From Antedon mediterranea (lineage: Eukaryota > Animalia > Echinodermata): a DNA stretch of 64,000 bases. This document shows, piece after piece, positions 3,501-47,270 of this stretch (positions within the stretch are counted from its first letter, which is position 1; each line of letters begins with the position of its first letter). Under the pieces are notes generated by a model. The model was given only the letters and a program-made list of their open reading frames with translations, was not told the origin of the DNA and ran no database searches. Position numbers and translations under genes: made by a program. The DNA is taken from positions 24,446,871 through 24,510,870 of the forward strand of contig NC_092676.1 of assembly GCF_964355755.1 (NCBI RefSeq). Reading direction: 5' to 3'.

Positions 3501-5327
3501 GATATTGTAGTGCAGAGCTTTATGCATACAATACGATATTATACAGTTTGCATGTTTTATTCTACCATATTTGGGCATACCACTACCATATTTGGGTATA
3601 TCACTACCATATTTGGGCACATCACACTTTTTTTGATAGTGTGAACAGAGCTTTACATTACAAAGCTGTAATTAATAAATAAGTCTTGATATTAACTAAA
3701 CTGAATTAATTACTTTCAGACTCCTTTTCAGTCAAGATCGATGGCGAGCATCCATCCGACACCCATTGGTTACCAATACCATGCCAGCAACATGACACAA
3801 ACAATCACACAGCCAAAGAACATGTGGCAGGCAGAGACAACCAATGATAACACTCCTACTATACCAGACCTTCAGTACCAACCATCCAGAAGCCCAGACA
3901 ATCCTCAGCTCATTGCCAACCCTACAGACATACAGACTCAGGTACTGCTTAAGGGCTCTTCAGATCATGGAAATGATACTCCTACAGAACCACAGTTGAT
4001 GGGTACACTGCCAGAGAAACTACCTGAGGGACCTGTCTTGCTGTCGCAGGGTGACACCATTTCCTCAAGAACAAACATAAATGGGTCTCATAAGTTCACC
4101 ACTCCTTTTAAAGCCTTCAAGAACTTTAATATTGAGGATGACATGCCAAAAACACCTGAACTAACATTTTCATATGCAAGGTAAGACTCAATAATAATCT
4201 GTTTTTTCTTATTATTGTTCATGTACTACTGTATTATGAAATTATGAAAGTAATAAAACAAAAAAGACTCAATAATGTGGATTCTCTGGCAATGTTTTCT
4301 GAGTGCTTGCAATAAATGCTTATTTCATCAGTGGCATAACACAGAGGCCTGAGGCTCCTGGTTTAAGGATTCCAAGGAGCCCTCCCATATTTATAGCCTT
4401 TTTCCACATGTTTTAATGCCTGTGCTGGGTACTGCTCAGGGGCCCCTGTAAGCTCCGGTGGCCGTTGGGTTTAACCAGTGAGCACTCATAGCTGTAACGC
4501 CGCTGTATTTCATCTTTATAAGGTATGTCGATGTTGGGGCTTCACTTGCAAGTACTAAGGAACAAACTTCAGATTCAACTAATATTGAAAGTGGTACAAG
4601 AGAGTTGGTAATGGAAGAAGTCACTACCACACAAGATGAAGTGGATTCCCAGCCTACTATGCCGCCAGAGACTACTCAGCAACCAAGTAAAGATTGTCAT
4701 AGGTAAGCTAATGATGATGATAAATAACTGTACATTTCTTGCCATTGTCTGAGACTAAAAAGGCACTAAAGTGTCTTTTACATCTGTTCCGGCACGGTTC
4801 TGGTCCGGCGAATCGAACATCAATTTTTTTTTGTGTCAAACGATATGCGCGCAGCCGTGTGAAAACGAAACATTGACGTTCGATCGGATTTTCCGTGAAA
4901 GACCCTCAATTGTTTGATTAGATGTTTAATCAATGGTTGTCATGCCTATCTGAACAACCTACAACTTTCTAATGTAATAGATAATGCCTTTTTGTATTGT
5001 CCAGTGTAACTTATAATATGATTCATGGAGTATCATTATCTTTGGACTAGATCTGGTGCTATTGCCTTTATTTCTGAGGAAGAGTTCCTAGAGCAATCCA
5101 GCTTCTTACAAAGACTTCTTCCATTGGAAGATGTCAATGCTTGGATCAAAAAGATTAACAAGTACGTGGCCAGGAAGAAAGACAGCCAGTACCTGTTGGA
5201 GAGTGAAATAAGTAATCTTGGAATGGGTCCTCGTGCTAAGGCAATGCTGCTGTTGCTTGTTAAGTTGAAGCGACTTGCTCAAGCACGACCAAACGGTGCA
5301 GGCGATCAGGTATATCAGCTCATTTAG
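549..5327 (+). CDS. SKA3: Spindle and kinetochore-associated protein 3 (Ska3), 9 coding exons, ~573 aa
   Basis: GT-AG exons 549-716, 1130-1304, 2033-2111, 2411-2569, 2913-3061, 3280-3353, 3720-4180, 4523-4702 and 5051-5327 join in phase (1722 nt). The N-terminal FKKLRHLAAKVEKES...NLMKYGY and the motif KTPTLADFGIS resemble vertebrate SKA3 (FCGKLRSLA...FQKYGY; PQLSDFGL). A long TP/SP-rich disordered middle follows. Confidence 0.85.
938..1083. mobile_element. MITE family A (~150 bp, TIR AGCTCTGTCTACACTATCAAACT), probably PIF/Harbinger-type; representative copy
   Basis: The same TIR and GTGATGTGCCC/ATCACTACCATATTTGGG core recur at about 1747-1896, 2168-2242, 3372-3518, 3560-3653, 6276-6430, 8540-9088 (x3), 12770-12915, 16967-17108, 17779-17932, 22036-22135, 32716-32862, 44752-44880, 46969-47108, 51506-51663, 54372-54522 and 63079-63235. 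Direct TTA or TAA flanks are seen at 32716 and 46969. Confidence 0.85.
1350..1620 (-). mobile_element. tRNA-derived SINE
   Basis: Reverse-complement copy of the element at 5823-6095, with head GGGCATGTGG...GGTTCGAATCC and a 3' tail ending in GCACTATATAAATCC. Confidence 0.8.
4329..4505. mobile_element. hAT-type MITE
   Basis: Termini CAGTGGCATAAC...GTAACGCCGCTG with a perfect 8-bp TSD TATTTCAT (4321-4328 and 4506-4513). Related copies lie at 7608-7763, ~14403-14529 and 14727-15892. Confidence 0.8.
4771..4906. mobile_element. Short inverted-repeat element (MITE), related to 6958-7190
   Basis: Imperfect terminal inverted repeats GTGTCTTTTACA...GTGAAAGACCC. It shares AGCCGTGTG and AAACATTGAC segments with 6958-7190. 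Confidence 0.5.
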
Positions 5328-6780: not shown

Positions 6781-9765
6781 TCAATATTCTAATAGAGAAT
6801 TGACAATGTTGACAAGGGCATGCTTAGATTCTGAGTCTTCTAAGTCTTCAATGGAATCTAATGCTGCTTGTACATAATTTTTTAGTTCAGACTTTATTGT
6901 ATCGGTAGCTGGTCCTGCAGCAATAATTTGGTAAAGCTGCAAAAAAAAAAGGTAAAACGCATCTTTCACACCTGATCCGGACATTTCAATTGAATGAACA
7001 GCATTTATTTGTCCAATATAAAATATCAGAAATTTGCTTTCTGTACATATCATATCCTATGTTACAAATAATAAAGAGAACAATATAATATAAAGTCCAA
7101 ACATATATTCCATAAAGCCGTGTGGAGCATCGTGCAAAATGAAAAACATTGACATTTAATTTGCTGGTGCCGCACCAGGTGTAAAAGACGCTCAACAATA
7201 GTCAACTCCTGCAAAAACCGGAAAATCTCCCAAAACCTGAAGGTCCACAATTTGTTTCTACTATGTAAAATGAATAATTATATAACAATTATATTAATAA
7301 TAATTATTTAATTTACTGTTTACCTGTTGAAAGTCGGCTGCGTTACTCGCCGTTGACATGGGCAGAGCTTCTCCAGTCGTAATGATGTGTTGAATGTGGA
7401 ACATCATTGCAGAGGAGCAAAGATTGAAGGCATCACCAAGTTCATAAGATTCATTTACAAAAGGTTGTAGGTCAAGGTTCAACTACCAAACGAAGAATGT
7501 AGAGATTTGTTTGCATAATTTAAAAATCATTTACTTTATATTAGATATAAAAATAACAAAACAGACATTTTATTTTCTATGCAGCAACAATGTTCTGTTT
7601 ACATAGGCAGTAGTATAATGGCTAAGAGCGCTCTCTGGCTAAACCCAGGGGCCCCATAGCTTATGGGCCCCAGAGCATAAGCAGCCCCAATGCAACTACC
7701 CATCATTTGAGGGCCCCTTACGAGTGCTAAACCAGGGGCCTTTCCTCCTGTGTCATGCCACTATGCATAGGACCTGCTTTTAGCAAAATTATTAAAAACT
7801 AAAACATACTTGTTGTGCAACTGTTAAGTATTTTCCAAATTGAAAAGCTCTGTTTTGCATGTCTTCATCCTGATTGGCCAGAATCAAAGCTGCCTGGCAA
7901 CACTTGGCCAATAAGCTTCCATTAGACAGGTAAACATGATTCAACCAGTCAGCAAAGGTCAGCTGCAGGTTAACGGTGTCCACTGAAAAACCCATGAACT
8001 CTGATTCCGTATAATCAGTAATTGCAGAAGATACCAATTCAACAACCTGATAATGATACATGATCACAGTTAAAATCGTAACAAATACGACAACGACAAA
8101 TACCAATATGTACATATTCTCTGCGGCGCAGTGTCTGTTAAAAGCATGGAACTGGTTGTGTCGCAGCCACAGATAAACCCTTTGATCCCCTGACCTCTAA
8201 CTAAGGTAATAATAGTTCCAATGATTACAGTTTTCATACCTGTGTGTTGTGCAGTTTAGCCAGACCTTGGCTAGCATTTGCCAAAAGGAAGTCACCACTT
8301 AACACCGACATCTTGTTGCCAAACTCCAGATCATCTGGTGAGCCGTCTCCAGGCCTAATTTCTTTTAAGTCAATGATGCCACGGTGTACTAGATAGGCGG
8401 TGTGAATCATTTCAGATATTTCTGCCAGTGTCCTTTGACTGAAACAAATATACACACACTTTGTAATCTTTCAGTTCATGGTTGCTGCTGCCATGTGTGA
8501 CATGCCTATTAATAATGACCTACTGTACTACCCAATCTAAAGATCTGTCTACACTATCAAACTTGTGACAAAAAATGTGATGTGCTCATAATGGACATGA
8601 TGATGTCGTATCACTAGCATATTTGGGTATATCACTACCATATTGGGCACATCACACTTTTTTGGTCAAACTAGTTTGATAGTGTAGACAAAGCTTTAAA
8701 TTAACCACTGACCTTACTACCCAATCTAAAGCTCTGTCTACAGAAATTTACAGTATGTGAGAAAAAAAATGTGATGTGCTCATATATGGACATGATGATG
8801 TCGTATCACTAGCATATTTGGGTATATCACTACCATATTGGGCACATCACACTTTTTTGGTCAAACTAGTTTGATAGTGTAGACAAAGCTTTAAATTAAC
8901 CACTGACCTTACTACCCAATCTAAAGCTCTGTCTACAGAAATTTACAGTATGTGAGAAAAAAAATGTGATGTGCTCAAATATGGACATGATGATGTCATA
9001 TCACTACCATATTTGGGTATATCACTTCCATATTTGGGAACATCACACTTTTTTTGTCAAACTAGTTTGATAGTGTAGACAGAGCTTTAAATTAACTTTA
9101 TTTACACATGAAATCTCAGTTTGTTGCCTTTTCTTCAGCACCTTGGATACTTACCTTTGGTAGACGTTATGTGAGTTGTCTTGGGCATCAGGTGGTAGTC
9201 CAGCCGCTCTTGACAGAAGCAAAATTACAAGACCTCTAGTTTGGAGATTACTACCTTCATAGACAAATGATCTATAAAATATAAATTATTAAATATTATT
9301 GCATGCTGGTTGTTGTTATTTCTTATTTATTTTCTTCTGCTGTAGCTGAAAAGAGGTATTTACAAATACATATATTTCAATTATTTAACAATAACATTGT
9401 CATACATACTTTGCCGTTTTTAAAATAGGGTGATTGGTTCCGACTAATTTCCTCACGTGTAGAGCAACATTTGCGAGTTCATCACTCAAAAGTGTTCTTA
9501 AGCTCATAAACGAGGTGGGATATCCGACCAAACGTTCACCTTCTGACACAGCCTTGTTCCAGGCACTGGTATCACCAGATGCAAATAAACTAGAATTTCG
9601 ACAATGATGGTCGATTCTTGAATCAGCAAGCAATGTGGTTTGTTTACAATGAAAAGTTGATCTGGGGTGCAGCTGCTTCTGAAAACATGCTGACCAATTA
9701 GAAAAACACTTAATGCTTGAGGTTTGTTGACTGATGCGAAGTATGTTATGAATTTTAAATTTCAT
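6781..9765 (-). CDS. PDSS2: Decaprenyl-diphosphate synthase subunit 2, 6 coding exons, ~407 aa
   Basis: Exons 9410-9765, 9155-9271, 8240-8438, 7810-8046, 7324-7482 and 6781-6936 join in phase (1224 nt). Motifs [61 protein letters not shown] and [17 protein letters not shown] match PDSS2. HRGIID stands in place of DDxxD, as in PDSS2. The N-terminus looks like a mitochondrial presequence. Confidence 0.95.
6958..7190. mobile_element. MITE in the last PDSS2 intron
   Basis: Imperfect TIRs GCATCTTTCACACCTGAT and ACCAGGTGTAAAAGACGC. Confidence 0.55.
7608..7763. mobile_element. hAT-type MITE (same family as 4329-4505)
   Basis: CAGTAG...GCCACTA termini, near-perfect 8-bp TSD TACATAGG/TGCATAGG, and a shared TGGCTAAACCCAGGGGCC core. 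Confidence 0.65.
8520..9095. repeat. Tandem triplication (~190-bp unit) containing MITE family A
   Basis: The unit TACTACCCAATCTAAAG-MITE-TTTAAATTAAC is repeated three times in PDSS2 intron 2. Confidence 0.85.
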
Positions 9766-10399
9766 ATTGATTTAAAATGAATAAAACTGCAAAAAAAAAA
9801 TTAAAAAAATTATGGTTTAATTATTAATTTATTTTTCTAAAAAGTAAAAAAACTATTTTTGTTTTCACATGGGGTACTGTACACTTTTACAATACAGTAC
9901 ACCAGTATCTTTTTTAATAACATTAGGTAGGCCTATGTTTAGGCCCACTTATAGTACTACTACTACCTAAGGGCCAGGCCTACCTAGAGAGAGATCAGGT
10001 AAGTTTATCACTCTGCTTTGCCCAGGACTAACTTTAGCCTGTCTGTACTTCTACCTAGCTAGTAACAAAATTAAAGTAGGCCTAAGCCTTACCTAGACTA
10101 GTAGTAGGCCTGTACAGTAGAGTTTAATATTTAGTAGGGCGGTAGGCCTAGAGTACTTACTTAGTATTAGTAGTAGTAGCCGGTACCGTATGCGTGCGTA
10201 GTACGTAGTCTAGTAGCCTTCCTACTAAAAAGAGAGGGTAGACCTGTCCTGTCTTAATTGATAGAAAGAGAGTAACAAGCTTGTATGTAGAGCCTAGAGT
10301 AAACGTATTATTTATTATTATTGTGATATACTTACTAGGCCTAGGGCCTATTGTGTATTTTGGATCAGATCCTTTATTGAAAACTATTGTACTAGGCTA

Positions 10400-26273: not shown

Positions 26274-28959
26274 TCAAATAATTTCACTTGGAGTTTTATA
26301 AACTGTTTGATTTGGTACACGGGTATACGTAACCGCCTGCAGACTTGACGCTTTACTGGCAGGGTCAGAGTTCACTCCATAGCCTTCAGTTGGCAAGATA
26401 ACAGTCTTCAGGGCTGGGGACGTTCTGTATGACGTCGGTGCGGCAGACGCGGTGGTATTTACGGGCTGGTGTTTCTTTTTCGTAAATCCAAATGTCATAT
26501 CGCAGCATTTCATCCAGCTGGTTATTGTCTTAGGGCCTGTTTCTATAGAGCAGAGAATACGGTTTTGAATACCGTTCTTTTCAAGAACCGTTTTTTCTTG
26601 CCAGCAGAAATGGGTCCCCACAAAAAACCACAAAAAAGAACCGATCTTAAAAACGGTTTCAAAAACCCCAATTGATTGCGGTCTCGATCGCAAAGAACCG
26701 TTCTGAAACCGGTTTCCGCGGAGCAATTTTTAGCTGCAACACAATCGCGGTCTCAATTTGACCCCAAAAACTGAACTCTGCAGTCTGCTGCACTGGGATG
26801 ATTGCGGTCAACTCGCAGTCAAACTCGCGCGATAGGACCTAGGCCTAAGTCATTTTTATTTCTCTAGATAGTGAGTATTTTATTTAACTAAAAAATGTTG
26901 ACCGATGCTATTACGAGGTTCGTAAAAAATATGTGAAGGAAAGAAGATGAGGGGACTTGTCGGGAGTCGGAAGAAAGACTCGCGTATAATAGGCCTACAT
27001 GTTTTTAAGAATATTGTAAAGCGTGTGAAAAATAGACGAGTTCAACTTGACAATATCAGAGGGTGCGACGTAGGCCTACCTATACTTTAACCAAGGACCA
27101 CAATAACGTTTCAGGTAATAATTCCCCCTTCTATGATGAAATGGATGCTATTTCTTGGGGATCGCGCTATGCGAAAAAAAGTAAACATGACCTCGATCAA
27201 ATCGCGCTTCCGCCTAACGAACTGCATTGTGGTGTATATAATGACGTCATTCATAACGAACGCACATGGACGGAACCGGTTTTATTGGAGTAAAAATTGA
27301 GCTGCAACGCGATCTTTATTTATAAACAACAGCCGAAACCGGTTTCCAAAAAACCGTTCTTTTTTTATTTTTCAATAGAAACAGGCCCTTAGAGCTTAAT
27401 ATCCACATGCCACTGGTAATTCCTACAACTAACAACATAAATATCTTAACAGAAAGTACGGGAACAGACGGTATCGAGTACGGTAATGGACATTTTGAAT
27501 CGCCGCTGTCACACGGCATATTCATAGACTGTTCTTTCCACAAATCAAAGTTGCCGTGTTGATAGAAATAACATGCGATAACTGAAGTTGCAGGCACTGT
27601 GTAAAGCACAGAAAACACTCCAATTCTAACCATTAACTTTTCAAGCTTATCAATGTTACTACCGTCTTTCTTCATAACTTTTCTTATTCTAAACAAGTAC
27701 ACAAATCCAGAAACTATGAAAAAAGTGCCTAGAAGAAAATAGATAAACAAAGGTACGAGAACGAACCACGTTAGCGCAGTTATATCCTGATTACCTACAA
27801 AACACATTCCAGTGAGTTCATCTCCGTCTACACGACGCATCGTTAAAATGATGATTGTTTTAAGAGCTGGAATGGCCCATGCAGCCAAATGATAGTAACT
27901 ACTGTGTGAGGCAATTGCTTCATATCCCCACTTCATTCCCGCCGCCAGAAACCAAGTTATGGTTAATATAACCCACCATATTGAACTGGCCATAAAAAAA
28001 TAATATTGAATCAAAAATACGATTGTGCAACCGGTACTCTCCAGGCCTTCCTGGATTAAGTATTTCTCGCCTGCCTGTGTCTCATCGCACGAGATTGCTT
28101 CTGCTCCGACTATAAGACGCACAATATACGCAATCGAATAAACATTATAGCAAAGGCTGAGAAATATAATTGGTCTTTCGGGATATTTGAATCGAACACG
28201 ATCGACGAAGAAAGTTAAAACGGTTACGGCTGTACAGAGGAAGCAGATGACGGCCCAGACTCCCATCCACATTTCGGCAAATTTCTTGTCAGATTCGCGA
28301 TAATAAACATCCACGTTACATCTTGGAGCGCAAGATTTTGTCAATTTTACATAAACAAATCGATCAGGATTTTTACATTCATTTGAATTTTCGTCTGTTT
28401 TTTTATCCGAGTCTTTTGGATCATGTGATATAATAGGTGGAATTAATGTCAATCCTGGTCGTGACCTATTCTTGTACGGACCAGATCCTGTTGATGAGTT
28501 CGGTGCCATCATGCAAAGGACTTGATGGCGATCATCTGAGTTGGCCACTGGAAGGCCCTCGCAGTTCATTGGCTCTGGCCACTTATAATTAAAACTTTCC
28601 ATAATAGGTGCACATTTTGCCTTTACGTCTTCGCACATTTGTCGACAGGGCCATATGGGGAATTCGTACTCTTCCGTACACATGGGTGCAAACATTGAAC
28701 ATAGAAATCTATTTAGTTGGTCCGAGCATCCATGGTTGACAAGAGGTGCAAATTCGTGTATTTTTGGTGCAGCTTCGTCTTGATTTCGATGTTGAAATCT
28801 GTTAGGCATGCTTGTAAGGTTGTAACCTATCCCTATGCACATTGGAATCGTGACCCGTTCACACTTAGGTCGGCTGATATCATCAATCGGAGACAGACAA
28901 CTGCAAACATGAAATGTTGTTAATAAAATCCATATCTGAACAAGCCAGCTAGCTTCCAT
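26274..28959 (-). CDS. FZD9/10: Frizzled-9/10 Wnt receptor (intronless; ~608 aa reconstructed), interrupted by a transposon in its C-terminal tail
   Basis: Signal peptide from ATG 28959, a 10-Cys CRD with HEFAPLV (Fzd9/10 signature), and 7TM motifs YPERPIIFLS, QEGLESTGC and KLEKLMVRIG. Removing 26533-27388 plus one TTA restores ...WILSSKTITSW... and an 85-codon tail ending at 26274. As assembled, the ORF ends at 27316 within the element. Confidence 0.95.
26533..27388 (+). mobile_element. PIF/Harbinger deletion derivative (856 bp) inserted in the frizzled CDS
   Basis: TIRs GGGCCTGTTTCTAT(A/T)GA, TTA TSD at 26530-26532 and 27389-27391, and subterminal AA(A/G)AACCG repeats. An internal Myb/SANT remnant YTLTKDHNNVSGNNSPFYDEMDAI lies at ~27081-27152. 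Confidence 0.92.
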
Positions 28960-30318
28960 CTTGAAGAAGGCCTGCAAATTCCAGCCCTGTTTGGTTGTAC
29001 AATTTGGCTCCAGCATCAATAAAGCTGAATTACCGGCTTAGCTTATCACATAAGTCATCGATACGCCGTGCTAACACATAAGTGATACCACTTACTTAGG
29101 GAATGCTTTGAACGAATAAGCCGAACTGAAAGTCGACACAATGCCTGCCTATACTGAACCGCATTACACTCGCGTAGTCATATGGGACTTGGTAATTAAA
29201 GTTCCTGCTTTATAACACTAATTATGTATGCAATACAATATGAATTACAAAGACATTTTTACAAAGTTACAGAAACATATGTGAAATCAAACAATTTGTT
29301 TTTGTATATAGTTTTTAACACGAAAGAAATTAATTAATCTGTTGAGCACGGCGGAAGGACACTAGTGCAAATGTGTGTATCGCGGTCATGTTGTATCGTT
29401 TGCTGTCGGTGCCCTTTGAAGTTGGATACGTTGGTAGTAAGTTATGGCAGTGAGATCATATCAGTTTAATGCGCTGCTTGTGTATACTCACTTGCAGTTT
29501 GAACTATTCAAAACCAGCATATGAAACCAATCCACCACTTTATTATGTTTGCCGATCTCTTGTGGCCTGTTGTTCAAGTATTATTTTTTTATCTCGTTTT
29601 AATTTTAGAAACGAATAATTGTGTTTCGGCTACTCAAAGAACAGCAAACTATTTGCTTTAAAAGACCATTATCTCCTAAATGTCTTTAGAAAAAAAGAAA
29701 TTTGAAAAGTTTTTTTTTCCATTATTGTATTAATATATAATCAGACTTCACTGTTATAATATAATATTCAACAAAATAAGTATATCATATGTAAAAAAAC
29801 GTACAGGCAAATTAGTAATACTAATACTATAGTAAGTAATGCCTGGATGAGACGGAACTATACACTCAGTTCACCATATTATTATAGATTTTATTTTATA
29901 GGGCCATATTTTTCACCAAAAATGAAGAACAAATTAATGTGGATTTTCAAAATTATAGACTGTTCACGAAGCTCACAAATAAAGAGTCATTGCTTGGCTC
30001 ACTTTGTTTTTTTGATTATGCTTTTTTAATTGTCGTGTTCTATTATTAGGTCGTGAAAACAAAAACAGGTACAGTATTGTACTACTAGTTATAGTATTAT
30101 TGAAATGAAATATACAGTATAACTTGAGATTGAATGATGACTTCAATAAGTTATCAGTGAATATTGTCAGTGGTAATGGTACACCTAAAATTATGAGCAA
30201 ATCAATGTGGATTTTCCAGATTATATATATTCACTGAAGATGAACAAATGCAGTTCATTGCTTGCCTCACCCACATTTTTGGGAGTTATGCTTTTTTAAT
30301 TATCGTGTTCAAGTTTAA

Positions 30319-36019: not shown

Positions 36020-38386
36020 AATTCACTTATCTAGTATCTATAATAGTACATATAAATAGATGAAAGTTGATTTTTGGCTTTGTCGATGTGTTCGTATTTA
36101 CAGTATTGTAGTAGGCCCTAGCCTAGACATTAGACTAGCAAAACTTGCTTTAAAAAAATAACCCAAAAAAATTCAACTGATATAGGCCTAGGCCTAGCTA
36201 GGCTAAATAAATAGATATAGACTAGGCTAGCCTAGGCCTAATCTTTAGGTTCAGTATTTTTTTTTTGCTAGGCCTAAACATTTTAGTTCTAACTTATAGC
36301 TACCTAAGATGATCACCGTTGTTAGTACCCTCATTCAGACAGAGTCTAGCCTAGGCCTACAGTAGTACTGTACTAACAAGTAGTACTAGGCCTAGGCCTA
36401 TAGGCCTAGTACTCACTAGTAGTATAGTAGCCTAGAACTAGCTAGGCCTAGCCTAGTTAGGCCCTAGCCTAGCCAGCTAGTACTAGTAGTAGTAGCCGAG
36501 CGAGAAGTAGAAAAAAGAGAGGGCTTATCTTTATCTAGGCCTAAACTAATCGTAATCCATCTAGCCTAATAATAATAATATTTTCCTAGCTTAGGTATAT
36601 AAATGTCTAATAAAATACTCGCACTGTACTCACATTGAAACTTGAATTTAAAAAATTAACAAATTTTCTTCGCGTGTTGCGTCTCCTCTCTCGACTCTTG
36701 GTGGTATGACGTAATAGTTCAAGTCTAGCCTCTCCTGTCTAGTCGTCGTCCCACGGCAAAAAGCGACGTACGCGCCCGCTGATACGAAAGATAGCGTTTT
36801 TGACGTACATGTAGACTACTCAGCTCTTTCAAGGCGTTCGTACTCAGTGCAATCCACGATAGCCTAGGCTAGAAATTGGACCGAATTAGCAGAGTACCAA
36901 CTTAGTTTAATCTTTACGTTATATCATCGTACACCTACCATGATAAAAGGAACAGAAATGTAAGCCACCCTGTCCTACCTATCAAATACTTTGTATGAAT
37001 AGAAGTTACGATGCTTATTAATAAATAAAAAACTTGCCTGTCTGTCGTCTTCCAACCGCCGCGTGGTGATGATTCCCACGTCACACCGCGTATGCTGGTG
37101 GATGTTTCTGATTGGTCAGTAGTTATTTTGTAGCGTTGACCAAATATATATCACAAGAATGAGTATTCCGCGATTTTTGCATGAGAAATCCAGTGAGTGA
37201 TGCCCGCCCTCATAAGGGCGGATGTATACATACTAAATAAGACTTGATTTAATAAATATTATACATGTCACATTAAATAGAATTATGATAATAATTTTTG
37301 CAATTGTAAACTATTTTATAATATATATTTATTAACAAACTAGTGTACATTCACTTTTACAGACAATTATTTACTAACATGCTAAGTTAGTTCACAAAAA
37401 AGGCCTAACACAGCAACACCAAAAATCAACGAATCGTTACTCAGCACGGCCTATTCTTTACCATTGCCGTGTACTACTCTACGCCCGGTAAATTGAGTAT
37501 TGTTTTTATGATGTAAATTAGTATAAAATACATGTTATTAATAGGACAAAATGTTAAATGTCATTAACATTTATTTGTTTTACCAGAAACGCGTAAACAC
37601 CGACACGCCCGGTCACGCTATCGTAGCGCCCGGTTGATAAAGCAAACTGTTTAGACGGCAGTTTTTACTAAATAAATTTCATAAAACGAACAATTAAATA
37701 TTCAAATAGTATTTAACATGATGTTGGCATGTAGTTGATAACATTTTTTATCATGAAAATACTACCCGGTGGTCCAGCCTTTGATTATTGAAACCGTCAC
37801 AAAAAGTTGTATACATCCCAGATACATCCACACTTATGGCGGCGCCCTACCACATGGACAATATTACTGTTACAGGGAAAATCCCGGATTACTCATTCTT
37901 GTGATATATATTCTTTGCGTTGACACAGGACATTGTCTCACTAGATTGTTAGGGGATGGAGTATATTCGATATTTTCAAACATGAATATTACAAAATGGA
38001 AAGTTTCTGCTTTAAAGTAAATGAACTGTGGTTTGCAGTGCAGAATGAAAAAAAAAAAAACAAGTCAATTAAAACTACAAATACAATGCAGTACGTCTGT
38101 ATTAACTTCAGATATTTTTACATATAGGCCTACATATTTGTTATACTGTTCAATACATTATACAAGAAGCTTTGACTTCCATTGTTAACAAACAATGAGT
38201 ACACCATGGGTATGATGCTACACCTTCTCCATTAATAATTAATATTTACATTTATTATTACAGCATTTTTTAATTTTATTTATTTTTTGTTGCCAACATC
38301 TAAACCACAATATATTTACAATAATAATCACAATAATAGAATGTAATCCAGAACATTCATCATTTAGCAAAATATTGAGCAAGTTT

Positions 38387-41106
38387 TTAACTGTTATTGT
38401 CTGTTGGTTGACTAATTTTAGTAACAACCATCAGTGCACCAAGAAGTGCTACCGACCAACCAAAAACCATCAGTGCACCAAGTGTTACCAACCAACCAAA
38501 AGGGGATGGCACACAATAAACAACAACCATCAGTGAAAGAAGAGCTACCAACCAACCAAAAGGAGATGGCACACAATAAACAACAACCATCAGTGAAAGA
38601 AGAGCTACCAACCAAAAAAAATTGAATGATACTAAATTCACTGTAGAATCTTCACAAATTCCATAGTCGCCAAGTGTTTTTGAATCCTCTAAAACTATTC
38701 CCTTGTAGGTAAATCGTTGAAAGCACAAATGCTTTTTGGAAATCTTTTCTTTTAACTCTTTCACAGTTGATGATGATCGCAAGTCTTCAAATGTTGTTAT
38801 ATTTCCTGTGATTTCCGCGCACACATTTACATTGAAGGAACTATAAAATTATAGGAAAACAAATAAATTTTGTTTTTTTCATCTTACAATTGTTGTTTAT
38901 ACAAGGGAGTACTAATACTTGATTTCAACGTACAAATCTTTAAGCATACCTTGTACTGAAATACGATGACAGAGCCAAACCAGTTAATAGTGCAGCTGCT
39001 TCAGCCTCATCAAGCATTGATGATCCAGATACTAATGAACTTGTTTGTCTTCGTTCTGCTGTTTAATTAAATGGGAAGAAGAAAAAGTATGAAAATCAGT
39101 GGTGATTTAGGGTTATGTAAATTGAAACGGAGAAGCAATTTAAGAAATTTTCACACCAGTATTTAGGTATCTTACCTCTTGTGCCATAACCATCCAACGG
39201 GCTAAAAATGCAAAAAAATGTTATAAAATCAAGGTAACAATAAAAATAACACAAAATAAAACTATAAATAATAGATATTTATTTGATATAGTGTTTCATA
39301 CCACATAGAAGCTATGCAGAAGCATAGAACTAGCCTATTTGTTTCTTAGTGGGACTTTTGATATGTATATGTATACAAATATGTTCTGTATATAGAATAG
39401 AAGAGTACACTGTATGTAGAATTAGACTTACATGGATTCACCAACGATAACAGCTGACGATTCGTTTGTTCCCTGTGATTGGAAACTAAAACAAATACAA
39501 AATGGCATTATGCTTAATAGATGGAAAGACTACCGGTAATGTAGCTTTGAATATGCATTTTTTATAGGCCTTCCTGTTTATATTTTGTCATATATGCTTG
39601 AAAAGCAGCTCCCAGTCAAATGTTTTGTGTCAATTACAGTTACACAGACCTAAGCCAACTTAATAATTTATACTTTCTAGTTTTCGAAACCAGCAAAAGG
39701 AAATTGAGATTTCTTTTTGAAATAAAAAGGATTAAGAAGGAGAAAAAAACTAGTCAAACATAAAGAATTTTGTAAAATATATAACCATAACAGTAACTAG
39801 GACCCTTAATCTGTAGGTGGAAAGAAGCAGTGAATAAACACAAAGAAGCAACCAGAGAATGGAAAATTAGGTTAAAAAGATTTCTAAGATTGTCAAATGA
39901 TTTTTTCAATCCATGGGGCCTAAAATTGCTATGTCATTCTCCTTCCCACTTCTCATTTCATGTTTCCAACTTTTCCCAACATACTGTATATTATTTCCAA
40001 GAGATAATCCCAACAACTATTAGAAGTAGAAGCAAATGGGCAAAGCCCCTACTAAATGTAAATGACAATGGTTGTCTTTACCTGTCTTTCAGCATCATTA
40101 TATAATTGTTATTCTTCTTCAACCAGTTATTTAGGTGATTCAAAGTGTTTTTATAATCACTCACTGGTTCAAAAAGATTAATATTTTCATCAAAGAAGCA
40201 AGGAAGCTCTTTTTTTTTCAAGAAATCTAATAAAATGTTGATAAGTTCTTTAAACCGGATACCAAGATCGTCTTCTTTCCATATCTTGTCACTTCTTTCA
40301 TTAAGATGAAGCAGACATGTTTTGAGATGGTATGATTTTATCTTCCCAAATTGTGAACGTTGAATGAATGCAACTGCTTTCAAAACCTTTAAACATACAC
40401 GATGGTATATATCCATGCTTCGAATAAGTGTCTTCTCCTGTTGAGAGTAACTTCTACGCCAGAGATAGTTGAATACATTCTTCTTGTCAGGGATTTCATG
40501 AAAGCCATTGGCTTTGTGATGTCGCTTTGCAACAAGATATTGGCCTTGAAACTCGACCGCAGGGACCAAATCGATGTAAATTGTGACACCTCTGTATTTT
40601 ACTGTGAGTTGCTTTGCTGGATCATTATCTTGTAATTTAATTTGGTAGTCTGGTAATTCTCTTTCCATAAATACAACTGCATGACCGATTCCCGCTTGCA
40701 TCTTACGGCACATTAGTATTGGGCTTAATTGTCCATCTATAGTGCATTTTTTCCATGTTTCACCGTTGTAATGTATGAAATAGTAGCCTGGTGCATTATC
40801 TTTCTTAGTAATAGTAGGTGTGCTGTCTAACTTCAATGGGACAAGCAGGTCGAACTCAATAGGCTTGGTTACTCTCAGGCCCTCAAAGCTACTACCTTGG
40901 CAAATTACACGATCCATTTTCTCTTTTGTGTAAATTTGGAATTTATCTATGATGTTATTCACTATCATCCTAGCTTGTGTCCAATCAGATTCGTCGATAA
41001 CAACACATTTTTTGTAGAAGAGCATAAGCTCTTCTGATAATAATACATTTTTGTCATCTTCTTTACGTACATTTTCATTCTCATCATATAGCGACATTCT
41101 GTTCAT
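38387..41106 (-). CDS. cGAS-like receptor A (Mab-21 nucleotidyltransferase) predicted to be fused by splicing to a ubiquitin-like domain and transmembrane repeats, ~555 aa
   Basis: Exon 40082-41106 has QGSSFEG...EFDL...IDLVP (intact acidic triad), WRRSYSQQEK, SYHLKT and FFDENINLF. Exons 39432-39485, 39176-39201, 38950-39058 and 38387-38840 are all canonical GT-AG and phase-matched (2-2-1-2). The last exon encodes a UBL (STVKELKEKI...QRFTYKGIVLEDSKTLGDYGI..DSTVNLV) followed by hydrophobic repeats. Confidence 0.85.
38425..38615 (-). repeat. Coding repeat (60-bp x2 plus shorter derivatives) encoding hydrophobic WLVALLSLMVVVYCVPSPFG units
   Basis: Direct repeats of CAACAACCATCAGTGAAAGAAGAGCTACCAACCAA and ACCATCAGTGCACCAAG. 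Confidence 0.85.
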
Positions 41107-42559
41107 TTCTAAAAACAACAAAACTGAATATTTACCGTGTACTTTTCAAATCTTTACAATAGAAAAATCAATATATAGCTGATGAAACCATAATAGTGTA
41201 AGACATGAGACCTGGTATAGGATCACCTGGAACTCCATATAATATCTGTACCATGTATAATGTAGTTTAGTTTCTGTATTAAATAAAAATATTACAATTA
41301 GCTAGTTATACTTGTTTGAATATAGCACCGTTACCTGTAGATACTATTCCTCCTCCTAGTCTATGATTGAGGCATTGCCTTATAGAAAATAGTGATACTA
41401 AATAGGGCTCAGGTTAGCCAATAGAAGGCTATCTAAAGCCTGTTTATCCCAGCCTAAATCCACACATCTGAGGCCGTACCTTGATAGATAATATAAATGG
41501 TGCCCAAACTATTTAGTAATGTATTTTGTCTTCATTCATTACTACGTACGAGACCAGCCATATGCTATCATTATCAACACACCAAACAAAATGTTGACAT
41601 TTTTTTTTTTTTTGTGTGTTTGGTCCCGGCTACTGACTGTACTACTCTATAGGCTACAGTGTAATAGTGGGTCCTTAGACTCCTTACAAAATGAAAAATC
41701 AATAAAATCAAAATGTTCCCCTACTACTATGTTTTGTCTATCTACTAATACTAGCTAGGCCTATCAGTATACTGCTTAGCCTCAGTCAGGCAGTGCTCCC
41801 TCGCAGCGGCGGTGCGTCGGTGGTGTAGGAGGCCTTCAGGCACGTACGTGCGATCACAACCCAGATGACTAGGTAGGCCTATTAGTTTTACTACCTATTT
41901 TTTCCTATAAATATAAATAAGAAAGATGAATGATACTAATAACACTGAAAGAGTGTCTGTCTGTTTTACTCTTCAGTAATTTACTGCTCTGAGTCTTTGC
42001 GTGTCTCGTGTGATGTTATGGCGGTGCCTCCTCTCGACGTACGTCGTGTGTGTACTGTGTATATGATCGGATTGGCTGGTTGGATGTTGTTTTTGATTGG
42101 TCAGTAGTTGGTATATTTCTAAGAAAAATGTTTCACCACACCCACTTTTTTACCAAACTTATTGTTTTTTTTTAAGAATAAGATTTAAAAGGTTTCATGA
42201 AAATGTACAGTACAGTAGGCCATATATAATAGATCAAGTCAAATTCAATATAATAAACAACTCAAACATTCTGGGATGAAAAAGGCACTTTTTACTAATA
42301 TTAAGTCAAAACTCCGTCTAGAACATAGACTAGTCTTCTACTAACAGTAACATATGTATAGAGTGAACCGGGTTTTGCAATAATAACACATTCAATTAAC
42401 TAAAATACAGAAATAATATAGGACTTGTTTTTATTAGCATAATATTCCAGATATTTTAGCTTGGATTGTGACACGTCTCATTCTTTGTTCGCCAGTCAAT
42501 GAGTGCAACTTTTCTCATATCACTATACTAAATTATATGTATTAGGGGTTTTTTTGCCA

Positions 42560-43495
42560 CGTATCTAAACCACAATTATATTTACATTTTTGGAATAGTA
42601 CATTAATTCACAATAGGTAATACCAACCATCAATGAAAGAAGTGCTACAAACCAACCAAATGGAGATGGTACATAATAAACAACAACCATCAGTGAAAAA
42701 AGTAATACTATACCAACCAACAAAAAGAATATGGTTCTAAATTCACTGTAGAATCTTGACCAATTTCATAGTCGCCAAGTGTTTTGGAATTCTCTAAAAC
42801 TCTTCCCTTGTAGGTAAGTCGTTGGAAGCACATGGGTGGCATCATTTTATTTTTCGATTTTTTAAAACTCTTTGACAGTTGATGATGATCGCAAGTCTTC
42901 ATATGTTGTTCTAGTTCCTGTGACTCTTGAGTATACATTTACATTGAAGGATGCTTGGCAACATCTAAACCACAATATATTTACTATTTCCATCTTCGAT
43001 ATTTATATAATTACAATAATAGAATCCAAACCAAAACATTCATCATTTAGCGTAATATTGAGTAATCTTTGTACTTGATATATTGTCTGTAGGTTGACTA
43101 TTTACAGGAATAAATAATAAACAATCAGTGAAAGAGGAGCTAAATGGACAAGTAATTTAAAAATTGTTGATTTAAGAAATGAGACCTGACCAATATATGA
43201 AATTTTCTCCACTCCTACTGGGTTAATTAGAATGTCATTAAGTACAGGATTTATTAGTATGAAGTGAAAAAAAAACCCCAAAAAATAAGTTCTTACCTCT
43301 TGTGTCATTATCCTAATTCTGTGAGCTAAACATAAATTTAAACTATTACAGTACTAAATTATAGACATCTTTTAATTCTGCTAATTATATTGATTGCATT
43401 TCTAGAAACTAAACAAATTAGTTTCCTTAGTTATCCTATTTGTTTCTTGGCAGATTTATCATAAGCGCTGCTTTATTTATCCCTGTTTGAAAACT
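42560..43495 (-). pseudogene. Decayed UBL-TM tail exons of cGLR copy B
   Basis: Homologous to the tail of copy A, but the exon-2 donor is missing and the exon-3 homolog (43297-43325) has an in-frame TAG. The UBL (~42735-42950) is frameshifted at GAG TTT TAA, and there is a stop after WLV in the TM repeat. Confidence 0.75.
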
Positions 43496-43558
43496 TAAAC
43501 AAAATGTACAATATGATTTATTATTGTAAAAATGGAAAAAGCATTCTTAACAATAATC

Positions 43559-44583
43559 AATTAACAACATAGCATGCACACCTTGTCCTGCATGAACTCT
43601 ATGAATTAACAACATAGCATGCACACCTTGTCCTGCATGAACTCTATGAATTAACAACATAGCACGCACACCTTGTCCTGCATGAACTCTATGAATTAAC
43701 AACATAGCACGCACACCTTGTCCTGCATGAACTCTATGAATTAACAACATAGCACGCACACCTTGTCCTGCATGAACTCTATGAATTAACAACATAGCAT
43801 GCACACCTTGTCCTGCATGAACTCTATGAATTAACAACATAGCACGCACACCTTGTCCTGCATGAACTCTATGAATTAACAACATAGCATGCACACCTTG
43901 TCCTGCATGAACTCTATGAATTAACAACATAGCACGCACACCTTGTCCTGCATGAACTCTATGAATTAACAACATAGCATGCACACCTTGTCCTGCATGA
44001 ACTCTATGAATTAACAACATAGCATGCACACCTTGTCCTGCATGAACTCTATGAATTAACAACATAGCACGCACACCTTGTCCTGCATGAACTCTATGAA
44101 TTAACAACATAGCATGCACACCTTGTCCTGCATGAACTCTATGAATTAACAACATAGCACGCACACCTTGTCCTGCATGAACTCTATGAATTAACAACAT
44201 AGCATGCACACCTTGTCCTGCATGAACTCTATGAATTAACAACATAGCATGCACACCTTGTCCTGCATGAACTCTATGAATTAACAACATAGCACGCACA
44301 CCTTGTCCTGCATGAACTCTATGAATTAACAACATAGCACGCACACCTTGTCCTGCATGAACTCTATGAATTAACAACATAGCACGCACACCTTGTCCTG
44401 CATGAACTCTATGAATTAACAACATAGCACGCACACCTTGTCCTGCATGAACTCTATGAATTAACAACATAGCATGCACACCTTGTCCTGCATGAACTCT
44501 ATGAATTAACAACATAGCACGCACACCTTGTCCTGCATGAACTCTATGAATTAACAACATAGCACGCACACATTGTCCTGCAT
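43559..44583. repeat. Minisatellite, 45-bp unit, ~23 copies
   Basis: Unit TTAACAACATAGCA(T/C)GCACACCTTGTCCTGCATGAACTCTATGAA with essentially one variable position. Confidence 0.97.
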
Positions 44584-44917
44584 CTGAAATTGAGTAATTT
44601 GTAAGGCAGATCCTGTACTGGTTGAATTACAATTTTGAACTGAAACAAAAAAGATCATTGATGCATACAGTATAAGGAAGGAAATTTAGTAAAAAATAGT
44701 GTACTGTATCTACCAAAACTGAACTAAAATCTTGCATTATTAATTCATGTAAAGCTCTGTCTAGACTCAAACTGTATGTGAAAAAAAAAATGTGATGTGC
44801 CCATATATGGAAATGATGACATATCACTACCCTATTTGGGCACTTAACACTTTTTATGTCAAATTAAGACTAGAAGTAGAAAAGAATGCACCAAGCTCTG
44901 CTATTATATGGTTGTCT

Positions 44918-45940
44918 TTACCTGTTTTTCAGAATCCTCACAATGCTGGTGTCTTCAGTAAATTTGTAACTCAACCATTTCATTAGGTTATTCAAAGTGT
45001 CATCACTTATCGATTCAAACAGATTAATATTTTCATCAAAGAAGCAAAGAAGCTTCTTTTCTTTTAGGAAATGGATCAAACTATTAACAAGTTTTTTAAA
45101 CCAGACCCCAAGATCATCTTCGTCCCATATCTTGACGTTTCTTTCATTTAGATGAAGCAGGCATGTTTTGAGATGGTATGATTTCAACTTCCCAAATTGT
45201 GAACGATACTGGTGTGAGACTGCAACTGCTTTCAAAATCTTTAAACATACACGATGGTATTTATCCATGCTCCGAATAAGGTTCTTCTCCTGTTGAGAGT
45301 AACTCCTACGCCAGAGATAGTTGAATAAATTCTTCTTGTTAGGGATTTCATGAAAGCCATCAGCTTTGTTATGTCGCTTTGCAACAAGATATTGGCCTTG
45401 AAACTCTACCGCAGGGACCAAATCGATGTCAATTGTCACATCTCTGTATTTTACTGTGAGTTGCTTTGCTGGATCTTTATCTCGTACTTTAATTTGGTAG
45501 TCTGGTAATTCTCTTTCCATAAATGCAACCGCATGACCGACTTCTGCTTGCATCTTAAGGCACATTAGTATTGGGCTTAATTGTCCATCTATAGTGCATT
45601 TTTTCCATGTTTCACCGTTGTAATGTATGAAATAGTAGCCTGGTGCATTATCTTTCTTGGTAATAGTAGGTGTGCTGTCTAACTTCAATGGGACAAGCAG
45701 GTCGAACTCAATAGGCTTGGTTACTCTCAGGTCCTCAAAGCTACTACCTTGGCGAATTACACAATTCATTTTCTCTTTTGTGTAAATTTGGAATTTTTCT
45801 ATGATGTTATCCACTATCATCCTAGCTTGTATCCAATCAGATTTGTTGATAACAACATATTTTTTGTAGAAGCGCTTAAGTTCTGATAAAAATACATTTT
45901 CATCATCTTCTTCACCTACATTATCATCATATAGTGCCAT
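44918..45940 (-). CDS. cGAS-like receptor B (Mab-21 nucleotidyltransferase), tandem paralog of copy A; 340 aa unspliced or 343 aa ending in SKL if spliced to 44627-44639
   Basis: ATG 45940 follows an acceptor. Motifs QGSSFED...EFDL...IDLVP, WRRSYSQQEK, SYHLKT and FFDENINLF are present. It has the same AG|GTAAAG donor at 44922/44921 as copy A. Confidence 0.9.
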   Translation of the reverse strand: MALYDDNVGEEDDENVFLSELKRFYKKYVVINKSDWIQARMIVDNIIEKFQIYTKEKMNCVIRQGSSFEDLRVTKPIEFDLLVPLKLDSTPTITKKDNAPGYYFIHYNGETWKKCTIDGQLSPILMCLKMQAEVGHAVAFMERELPDYQIKVRDKDPAKQLTVKYRDVTIDIDLVPAVEFQGQYLVAKRHNKADGFHEIPNKKNLFNYLWRRSYSQQEKNLIRSMDKYHRVCLKILKAVAVSHQYRSQFGKLKSYHLKTCLLHLNERNVKIWDEDDLGVWFKKLVNSLIHFLKEKKLLCFFDENINLFESISDDTLNNLMKWLSYKFTEDTSIVRILKNR

Positions 45941-46559: not shown

Positions 46560-47270
46560 GCCTATCAGTATCACTATCATTAACAAAATACTGCTCACCC
46601 TCAGGCAGTGCTCTCGCCGGCGGCGGTGGAGCACGTAGGCGGTGAGCCTACGATCGTAAACCAGATGACGAGACTGTAGAGGCCTAGTAGTAGTTACTAA
46701 CTGTTATCTTTTCCTATAAATATAAATAAGAAAGTTGAACGATACCAATAACACTGAAAGAGTGTCTGTCTGTTTTACTCTTCAGTAATTTACTGTATCA
46801 ACTTACAATGTTCTGAATCGCGTCTTGTTGTGTGTGTGGTGCTTAATTAAATGGCCTGGCGCTGCCTCCCTCTGTCTCACGTGTGTACTGTGTATGATCG
46901 AATTGGCTGGTTGGATGTTGTTGTTTCTGATTGGTCAATAGTTGGTATAATTAGAGTTTATATTCGTAAAGCTCTAGGTCTACACTATTAAACTTTATGT
47001 GACAAAAAAGCGTGATGTGCCTAAGGTAGTGATATGACATCATCATGTCCATATATGGGCACATCACATTTTTTTGTCACATAAAGTTTGATAGTGTAGA
47101 CAAGGCTTAAGAAATGTTCCACAGTCCACACTCAGTTTTTGCCAAATTTATTTGTCTTATTATTGAGAATAAGATTTAAATGAATGTTTCCTGAATTTAC
47201 AGTACAGTAGGCCTAATATAATAGATCGAGTCAAAATCAACACAAACAACTTAAACAATCTGGGATGAAA
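46560..47270 (-). promoter_or_regulatory. Duplicated 5'/promoter region of cGLR B (homologous to ~41760-42280 of cGLR A)
   Basis: Shared blocks ACACTGAAAGAGTGTCTGTCTGTTTTACTCTTCAGTAATTTACTG and double ATTGG (CCAAT box on the gene strand) occur in both copies. A MITE at 46969-47108 is present only in B. Confidence 0.55.

Follow-up and report, generated by a model that had tools for sequence, protein, structure and literature searches.

A minus-strand gene of the crinoid Antedon mediterranea, located at positions 38387-41106 of the 64,000-nucleotide stretch of DNA analysed here (hereafter, the window), encodes a 555-aa protein that combines a Mab-21/cGAS-like receptor (cGLR) nucleotidyltransferase (NTase) domain, a linker, a ubiquitin-like domain (UBL) and a hydrophobic C-terminal tail. 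The best explanation of this architecture, to which we assign a probability of about 0.5, is a tail-anchored cGLR that has retained an intact catalytic triad and whose UBL is no longer conjugatable.

The coding sequence consists of five minus-strand exons (41106-40082, 39485-39432, 39201-39176, 39058-38950 and 38840-38387), and every intron has GT/AG ends at these coordinates. When joined, with cumulative phases 2, 2, 1 and 2, the exons yield a CDS of 1668 nt in which the sole stop codon is the terminal one. The translation (P0001) matches RefSeq XP_071956355.1, which carries an automatic, generic label, letter for letter. Thus, the spliced fusion put forward in a preceding reading of the DNA alone (hereafter, the sequence-only reading) holds, but the gene is not "hidden", as was supposed there. 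All four joints are present and canonical in the sequencing run X1 (40082>39485, 39432>39201, 39176>39055 and 38950>38840), which is taken as RNA by guess only and carries alleles different from those of the window. Contig depth is 6.76 at each joint, and this equality is the basis for inferring a single spliced contig; the flanks comprise 44 letters on both sides of the first joint (the bar being at least 31) and 26, 26 and 28 letters at the others, where they are limited by the short exons. The RefSeq model may share RNA data with this run. In the DNA-like runs X2 and X5, none of the four joints is found, and the introns are read through in a 1963-nt piece. At the third junction, RefSeq uses the acceptor at 39058, as predicted by the sequence-only reading, whereas run X1 uses the distal AG of CAGCAG at 39055, which makes exon 4 one codon shorter; exon 2 in the same run carries an extra in-frame 3-nt allele, so that both length variants are of 3 nt and keep the frame. 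Of the five codons that differ between run X1 and the window, four are residue changes.

Exon 1 (40082..41108, minus strand; NTase, aa 1-341, with the triad codons at 40857, 40851 and 40572) ends in a phase-2 donor, AG|GTAAAG, that overlaps the TAA codon (40080-40078) terminating the unspliced form. Counted from the ATG at 41106, this form is 342 aa long, and not 347 aa as previously stated. A further joint in run X1, 41212>41108, defines an upstream exon of at least 30 nt (41212..41241, minus strand), which is either 5' UTR or, if the ATG at 41254 is exonic, part of a 15-codon N-terminal extension; this ATG is in frame with exon 1 via the joint, and the RefSeq start is at 41106. The linker is encoded by exon 2 (39432..39485, 54 nt), exon 3 (39176..39201, 26 nt) and exon 4 (38950..39058, 109 nt, shortened to 106 nt when the distal NAGNAG acceptor at 39055 is used), all on the minus strand and all delimited by run X1 joints. 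On the same strand, exon 5 encodes the UBL (38627..38840, aa about 407-476) followed by the hydrophobic tail, a short polar end and the stop (38387..38629); the 3' UTR (38112..38386, with AATAAA at 38284 and 38256) is delineated by a run X1 contig (38112-38534). Just past the exon-1 stop, and in frame with it, lies an ORF of 28 codons with a tail-anchor profile (39991..40077, minus strand), to which 4 of the 8392 stop-to-stop frames of the window are similar; a phase-2 AG at 40053-40052 could turn this ORF into an alternative last exon for the donor of the upstream paralog described below. No joint supports this ORF, and the equivalent stretch of the paralog is out of frame.

A Pfam search started with the joined protein identifies Mab-21 (PF03281), Mab-21_C (PF20266) and ubiquitin (PF00240, E 1.2e-13), all past the cut-offs, in agreement with the proposed domain composition; for the NTase part, only Mab-21 families are detected, and the OAS1_C domain is not matched. 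The cGLR motif defined by Li et al. 2023, h[QT]GS X8-20 [DE]h[DE]h X50-90 h[DE]h, is found as CQGS 69-72, X11, EFDL 84-87, X90 and IDL 178-180, with the second spacer at the upper limit of its range and Cys in the first (h) position. The catalytic triad (E84/D86/D179) is intact, as originally claimed, and the NTase region, with a pI of 8.9, is basic. Homology by the cGLR criterion of Li et al. 2023 extends over the NTase core and the C-terminal helix bundle. A Foldseek search with the AF2 model (built from 21 sequences, mean pLDDT 74) retrieves MiD51 and cGAS structures with E from 1e-19 to 1e-16 (for cGAS, E 4e-17, TM by target 0.73). In the active-site motif, the NTase core with its helix bundle and the cGAS fold match, the window protein is like the cGLRs described in PMC9980059; it differs from them by the UBL and the C-terminal hydrophobic tail, and its cGLR activity is a prediction.

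The best solved match is, however, MiD51 rather than cGAS, both by sequence (E 4e-18 vs 8e-9) and by fold, and the nearest non-crinoid relatives match MID51-like_C and possess N-terminal anchors. The protein might accordingly be a MiD49/51-like, membrane-anchored nucleotide-binding adaptor, e.g., for Drp1 on mitochondria, that makes no immune second messenger. It resembles MiD49 and MiD51 (MIEF2 and MIEF1) in belonging to the Mab-21 branch, in its predicted membrane anchor and in the disordered spacer between the anchor and the NTase. MiD51, on the other hand, has an N-terminal anchor, lacks the acidic triad (one Asp is kept) and requires the PEYFP loop for Drp1, as described in PMC3926961; it also has no UBL. 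In the window protein, the triad is present, the PEYFP loop falls opposite gaps in the alignments to 4nxt and 5x9b, and the sole strong hydrophobic stretch begins near aa 474, so that there is no MiD-type N-terminal anchor and the predicted anchor is at the opposite end. Tandem arrays and the long branch, too, would better suit immune genes, and an adaptor of this kind appears improbable.

Among the 15 further NTases that appear in the listed matches of a profile search, 8 carry at the N terminus a hydrophobic stretch that is rich in Gly and Ala and has basic residues behind it, and the acidic motif is retained in most; a hydrophobic start is found also in 2 crinoid paralogs. Together with the anchor of MiD51, these cases indicate that membrane anchoring is old in the MiD branch, the novel feature here being the predicted C-terminal anchoring behind a UBL. 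Eight non-crinoid, MiD49/51-like proteins (P0055, P0082, P0089, P0101, P0104, P0106, P0110 and P0153, one of them named from the annelid Owenia) have an N-terminal anchor together with a largely intact acidic motif, so that the Drp1 receptors may descend from a catalytically active ancestor.

In the AF2 model, the linker (346-403, with the portion encoded by exon 2) is disordered, and residues 407-476 adopt a ubiquitin-type beta-grasp fold. This is a single UBL, not a tandem, and it shares with the UBLs of the crinoid relatives a one-residue insertion relative to ubiquitin. The alignment covers ubiquitin 8-70 and, consistent with the sequence-only reading of a UBL without di-Gly, ends short of the LRGG position; LRGG is missing from both P0001 and P0002, the two proteins of this locus. 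The idea that the domain acts as a ubiquitin mimic or a degradation handle is weakened by the replacement of the ubiquitin Ile44 with Thr and by the Pfam score of 48.5 bits vs 69-77 bits in four relatives with LRGG.

The tail includes 71 residues without charge (KD19 up to 2.43), for which AF2 predicts three helices (479-493, 500-514 and 520-547), matching the roughly three hydrophobic segments that were proposed. Hydropathy and helices fit a tail-anchored protein, though with three segments in place of one; pLDDT is only 55-72, and two of the helices, at 15 aa, are short for a bilayer. No signal peptide is evident, and the polar C-terminal end contains one K and one D. The exon-5 frame is unique in its combination of length and hydrophobicity among the stop-to-stop frames of the window. 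The tail is built of repeats, with a 60-nt unit (2.6 copies) and a 36-nt unit (2 copies), and its base composition (A 11%, G 26%, T 47%) contrasts with that of the 3' UTR (A 37%, T 37%). The repeat units that are multiples of 3, the base make-up unlike that of the UTR, the frame that is open here and broken by frameshifts and stops in the neighbouring duplicate, and the 3-nt variants in run X1 all count in favour of the tail-anchored cGLR reading. Protein, Atlas and profile searches detect no homologues of the tail beyond the two isoforms of the locus itself, so that conservation lends no support; an Atlas search with aa 403-555 yields generic ubiquitin matches only (0.80 or below), and a viral fold library yields mainly matches to ubiquitin domains.

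A hydrophobic tail need not be an anchor, and the main rival explanation is that this one is a degron. Kesner et al. (10.1101/2022.07.20.500724) report that hydrophobic C-terminal tails lead to degradation or to membranes and describe a BAG6 degron; thus, BAG6-type triage might destroy the spliced form, keeping a dangerous enzyme scarce, with the soluble 342-aa form that retains intron 1 doing the work. The T-rich, repeat-built tail, unique to the window locus, is compatible with this scenario, and so are the clean stop of unspliced exon 1 and the existence of stand-alone paralogs of 347-350 aa; the coverage of the first half of intron 1 in run X1 (depth about 2.9, with none over the second half) hints weakly in the same direction. 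A degron fits poorly with a base make-up unlike that of the UTR and with a frame that was kept while the duplicate decayed. Furthermore, neither AATAAA nor ATTAAA occurs within intron 1, and depth is greater for the spliced contig than for that of the intron, although contig depth is a poor measure. On balance, a degron seems unlikely.

The locus is a tandem duplication in which the paralog's own downstream exons have decayed. A paralogous NTase exon (44922..45940, minus strand) with 87% nucleotide identity and the same phase-2 donor is located 4.8 kb upstream, and is the first coding exon of RefSeq isoform X2 (XP_071956361.1), in which tail exons 2-5 are common to both NTase exons; P0002 follows the paralog ORF for 339 aa and then has the last 214 aa in common with P0001. 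The isoform-X2 joint, 44922>39485, is not seen in run X1, which has no bearing on its absence. Behind the paralog, on the minus strand, are decayed copies of exon 5 (42609-42951 and 42955-43103), whose UBL and UBL-tail junction are interrupted by frameshifts and stops, as well as remnants of exons 3 and 2 (43291-43308 and 43480-43503, respectively) left by the duplication. Between the two NTase exons, dN/dS is about 0.6 (0.101/0.164), and identity falls from 98-99% over codons 67-126 to 72-77% over codons 277-338, a pattern that points to gene conversion in the catalytic core. Within the intron that follows the paralog exon there is also a 45-nt minisatellite (43559-44583; 22.8 copies, 98% matches), which on the minus strand stays open over 359 codons and includes a stretch resembling the exon-4 donor, and the paralog is flanked by a short MITE-like element of very high copy number with inverted repeats (44784-44834 and 46978-47101).

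In such a setting, the gene could be a decaying duplicate of LRGG-type genes, still transcribed and spliced, whose UBL and tail have no selected function. The LRGG is gone, the UBL has diverged, a dead tail copy adjoins, and the four of five allelic codon differences noted above are non-synonymous; in addition, run X1 contains the joint 45364>38937, which leads from the paralog exon into intron 4 over 6.4 kb and would truncate the product. As a splice, this joint was rejected (it has non-canonical ends and a 4-nt shared word), and it is a deletion allele or an artefact. Decay is difficult to reconcile with two open NTase exons and an intact triad, with four canonical introns in phase, with dN below dS, and with a 454-nt last exon that lacks frameshifts where its duplicate has several; we consider it quite improbable.

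Both an NTase and a UBL are present in 11 of the 164 collected proteins, all from Antedon or Anneissia japonica. The sequence (R/G)LRGG is found in 9 of these 11 (about seven genes when isoforms, inferred from names, are counted once), at the extreme end in 6 and followed in the other 3 by 1, 12 or 15 additional residues, the 15-residue extension being mildly hydrophobic. The UBL of P0011 aligns to ubiquitin 2-76 and has one capping residue; in the model of P0007 the last residues are unstructured. Only the two proteins of the window locus lack LRGG and have a repeat-built, uncharged tail instead. In a quick tree, midpoint-rooted like an earlier one and built without P0020, P0021, P0028, P0086 and P0090, all 20 crinoid rows group together (SH-aLRT 100), separate from the 12 remaining rows; each of the three crinoid sub-branches includes UBL fusions, and the window pair sits on a long branch. 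Most simply, a single old fusion was followed by the loss of LRGG at the window locus, although this order of events is inferred. The Anneissia RefSeq isoforms P0008 and P0021 have 334 N-terminal residues in common and different UBL exons, whereas P0008 and P0009 share the last 116 residues and differ in most of the NTase, which is the same exon modularity as at the window locus. Another Anneissia protein, P0006 (871 aa), contains two tandem NTase domains with a Gly/Ala-rich hydrophobic stretch between them and may be a fused gene model.

Outside crinoids, the 150 matches listed from a profile search against 1.84 billion representatives include 141 new ones, namely, 126 ubiquitin-domain proteins and 15 NTases, and none with both domains; since poly-ubiquitin proteins crowd this list, distant fusions of Mab-21 and UBL from other phyla could fall below the cut. 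A metagenome scan reduced 406 pattern matches to 4 loci, all of which are distant, partial Mab-21 matches with no UBL. So far, the LRGG family covers two crinoid species, and the membrane tail one locus.

The sequence-only reading drew an analogy to OASL, and this analogy is closer than it claimed because the crinoid relatives end in LRGG, like avian OASL. The avian protein ends with LRLRGG and is conjugated mainly to itself (Shepard et al. 2022, PMC8764230), a behaviour that the crinoid LRGG relatives are predicted to resemble. OASL and the window protein have in common an immune-type NTase with a C-terminal UBL, but the former belongs to the OAS branch (OAS1_C) and has tandem UBLs and no membrane tail, whereas the latter belongs to the Mab-21 branch and has one UBL without LRGG; the likeness is convergent. 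The top feature look-alikes of P0004 are OASL clusters (score 0.85), a lead only. Bacteria offer a second parallel, type II CBASS with Cap2 conjugation, in which a cGAS-family enzyme is attached via its C terminus: conjugation of bacterial cGAS through the C-terminal glycine leads to more cGAMP (PMC10097602), and a Bacillus cyclase conjugated to PspA is found in the membrane fraction (PMC11153139). In bacteria, attachment relies on the tail of the enzyme itself and on an E1-E2 pair dedicated to the task, whereas in crinoids it would rely on a fused ubiquitin fold and on the E1/E2 of the host; the window protein, having no LRGG, cannot be conjugated in this manner.

Li et al. 2023 (PMC9980059) report that 87% of cGLRs consist of a single domain, and the fusions named there involve TPR, ankyrin and death domains and multiple cGLRs. 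The word "ubiquitin" does not occur in the main text of that paper, where a UBL with a C-terminal hydrophobic tail is likewise undiscussed; its domain table (3,832 rows) includes 6 rows with ubiquitin-type names, all from Anneissia (tables S1 and S2). Supplement 5 gives 47 cGLR and 3 STING genes for Anneissia, and the screen table (supplement 3) contains no match for Anneissia or crinoid. In the searched portions of PMC10732462, PMC10855445, PMC8195603, PMC9334734 and a choanoflagellate preprint, no such fusion appears, and a literature search in which subscription papers are thinly covered listed none that deals with a fusion of cGLR and UBL or with cGAS in Antedon. The sequence-only reading knew of no described cGLR with this architecture; the Mab-21+ubiquitin pairing is recorded in the 2023 supplementary table and in none of the searched main texts. 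The fusion gene is annotated but undiscussed. What is new is the second NTase exon with common tail exons, the crinoid LRGG family with the window locus as the exception, and the affinity to MiD49/51 with the triad kept.

If the protein is indeed a tail-anchored cGLR, its tail would be inserted post-translationally into an internal membrane, given that no signal peptide is evident. The C-terminal flanks of ER-type anchors are less basic than those of mitochondrial ones, and the single K and single D at the polar end suit the ER more than mitochondria. The NTase would then reside in the cytosol on a 60-aa tether and, once bound to a ligand (dsRNA or dsDNA, for example), synthesise a cyclic dinucleotide that acts on STING. 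In this view, the UBL would be left over from a domain that could be conjugated, and would now serve as a spacer or as a binding module that has diverged. With respect to history, an enzyme of the MiD49/51 branch would have expanded in crinoids and become fused to a conjugatable UBL; the window copy would have given up LRGG-mediated covalent attachment in favour of permanent anchoring in a membrane, and a later tandem duplication would have produced two NTase exons with one common set of tail exons. The anchored-cGLR reading is weakened by the lack of a tail ortholog among the search results, the short predicted helices, the four residue changes among five allelic codons, the dN/dS of about 0.6, MiD51 as the best match, the BAG6 degron precedent and the lack of a crinoid enzyme in the published screen table.

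A broader hypothesis, which by analogy with the conjugated enzymes can be offered only tentatively, is that crinoids possess a family of active cGAS-like enzymes with their own ubiquitin tag. Host E1/E2 would ligate the LRGG forms, some of them after uncapping by a protease, to one another or to proteins of the host or of viruses, thereby priming or placing nucleotide signalling, and the splicing of NTase exons to different tail exons would select conjugated, soluble or membrane-anchored sensors, the window locus being the anchored version. If the LRGG forms are conjugated, they would be an animal counterpart of bacterial Cap2 conjugation. How cGAS-family enzymes are placed and restrained is a question in both bacteria and animals; bacteria use ubiquitin-like conjugation and birds a conjugatable OASL. 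The crinoid family provides a natural, cheaply testable series in which the same type of enzyme ends in LRGG, in a capped LRGG or in a hydrophobic tail, or has no tail at all, and the crinoid branch links the non-catalytic mitochondrial receptor MiD51 to relatives with the catalytic triad. Taken alone, the membrane-tail gene is a one-locus curiosity, and its value is as a pointer to the crinoid family that ends in LRGG.

The window contains other genes as well. A Frizzled gene is represented by a long single ORF (27316-29037, minus strand) with the Fz and Frizzled domains; the match to the Frizzled membrane domain ends at profile position 312 of 322, so that a further exon may follow. Polyprenyl synthetase exons (PF00348) and a weak SKA1 match below the cut-off, at 6781-9771 (minus strand) and 3705-5327 (plus strand), are ordinary neighbours.
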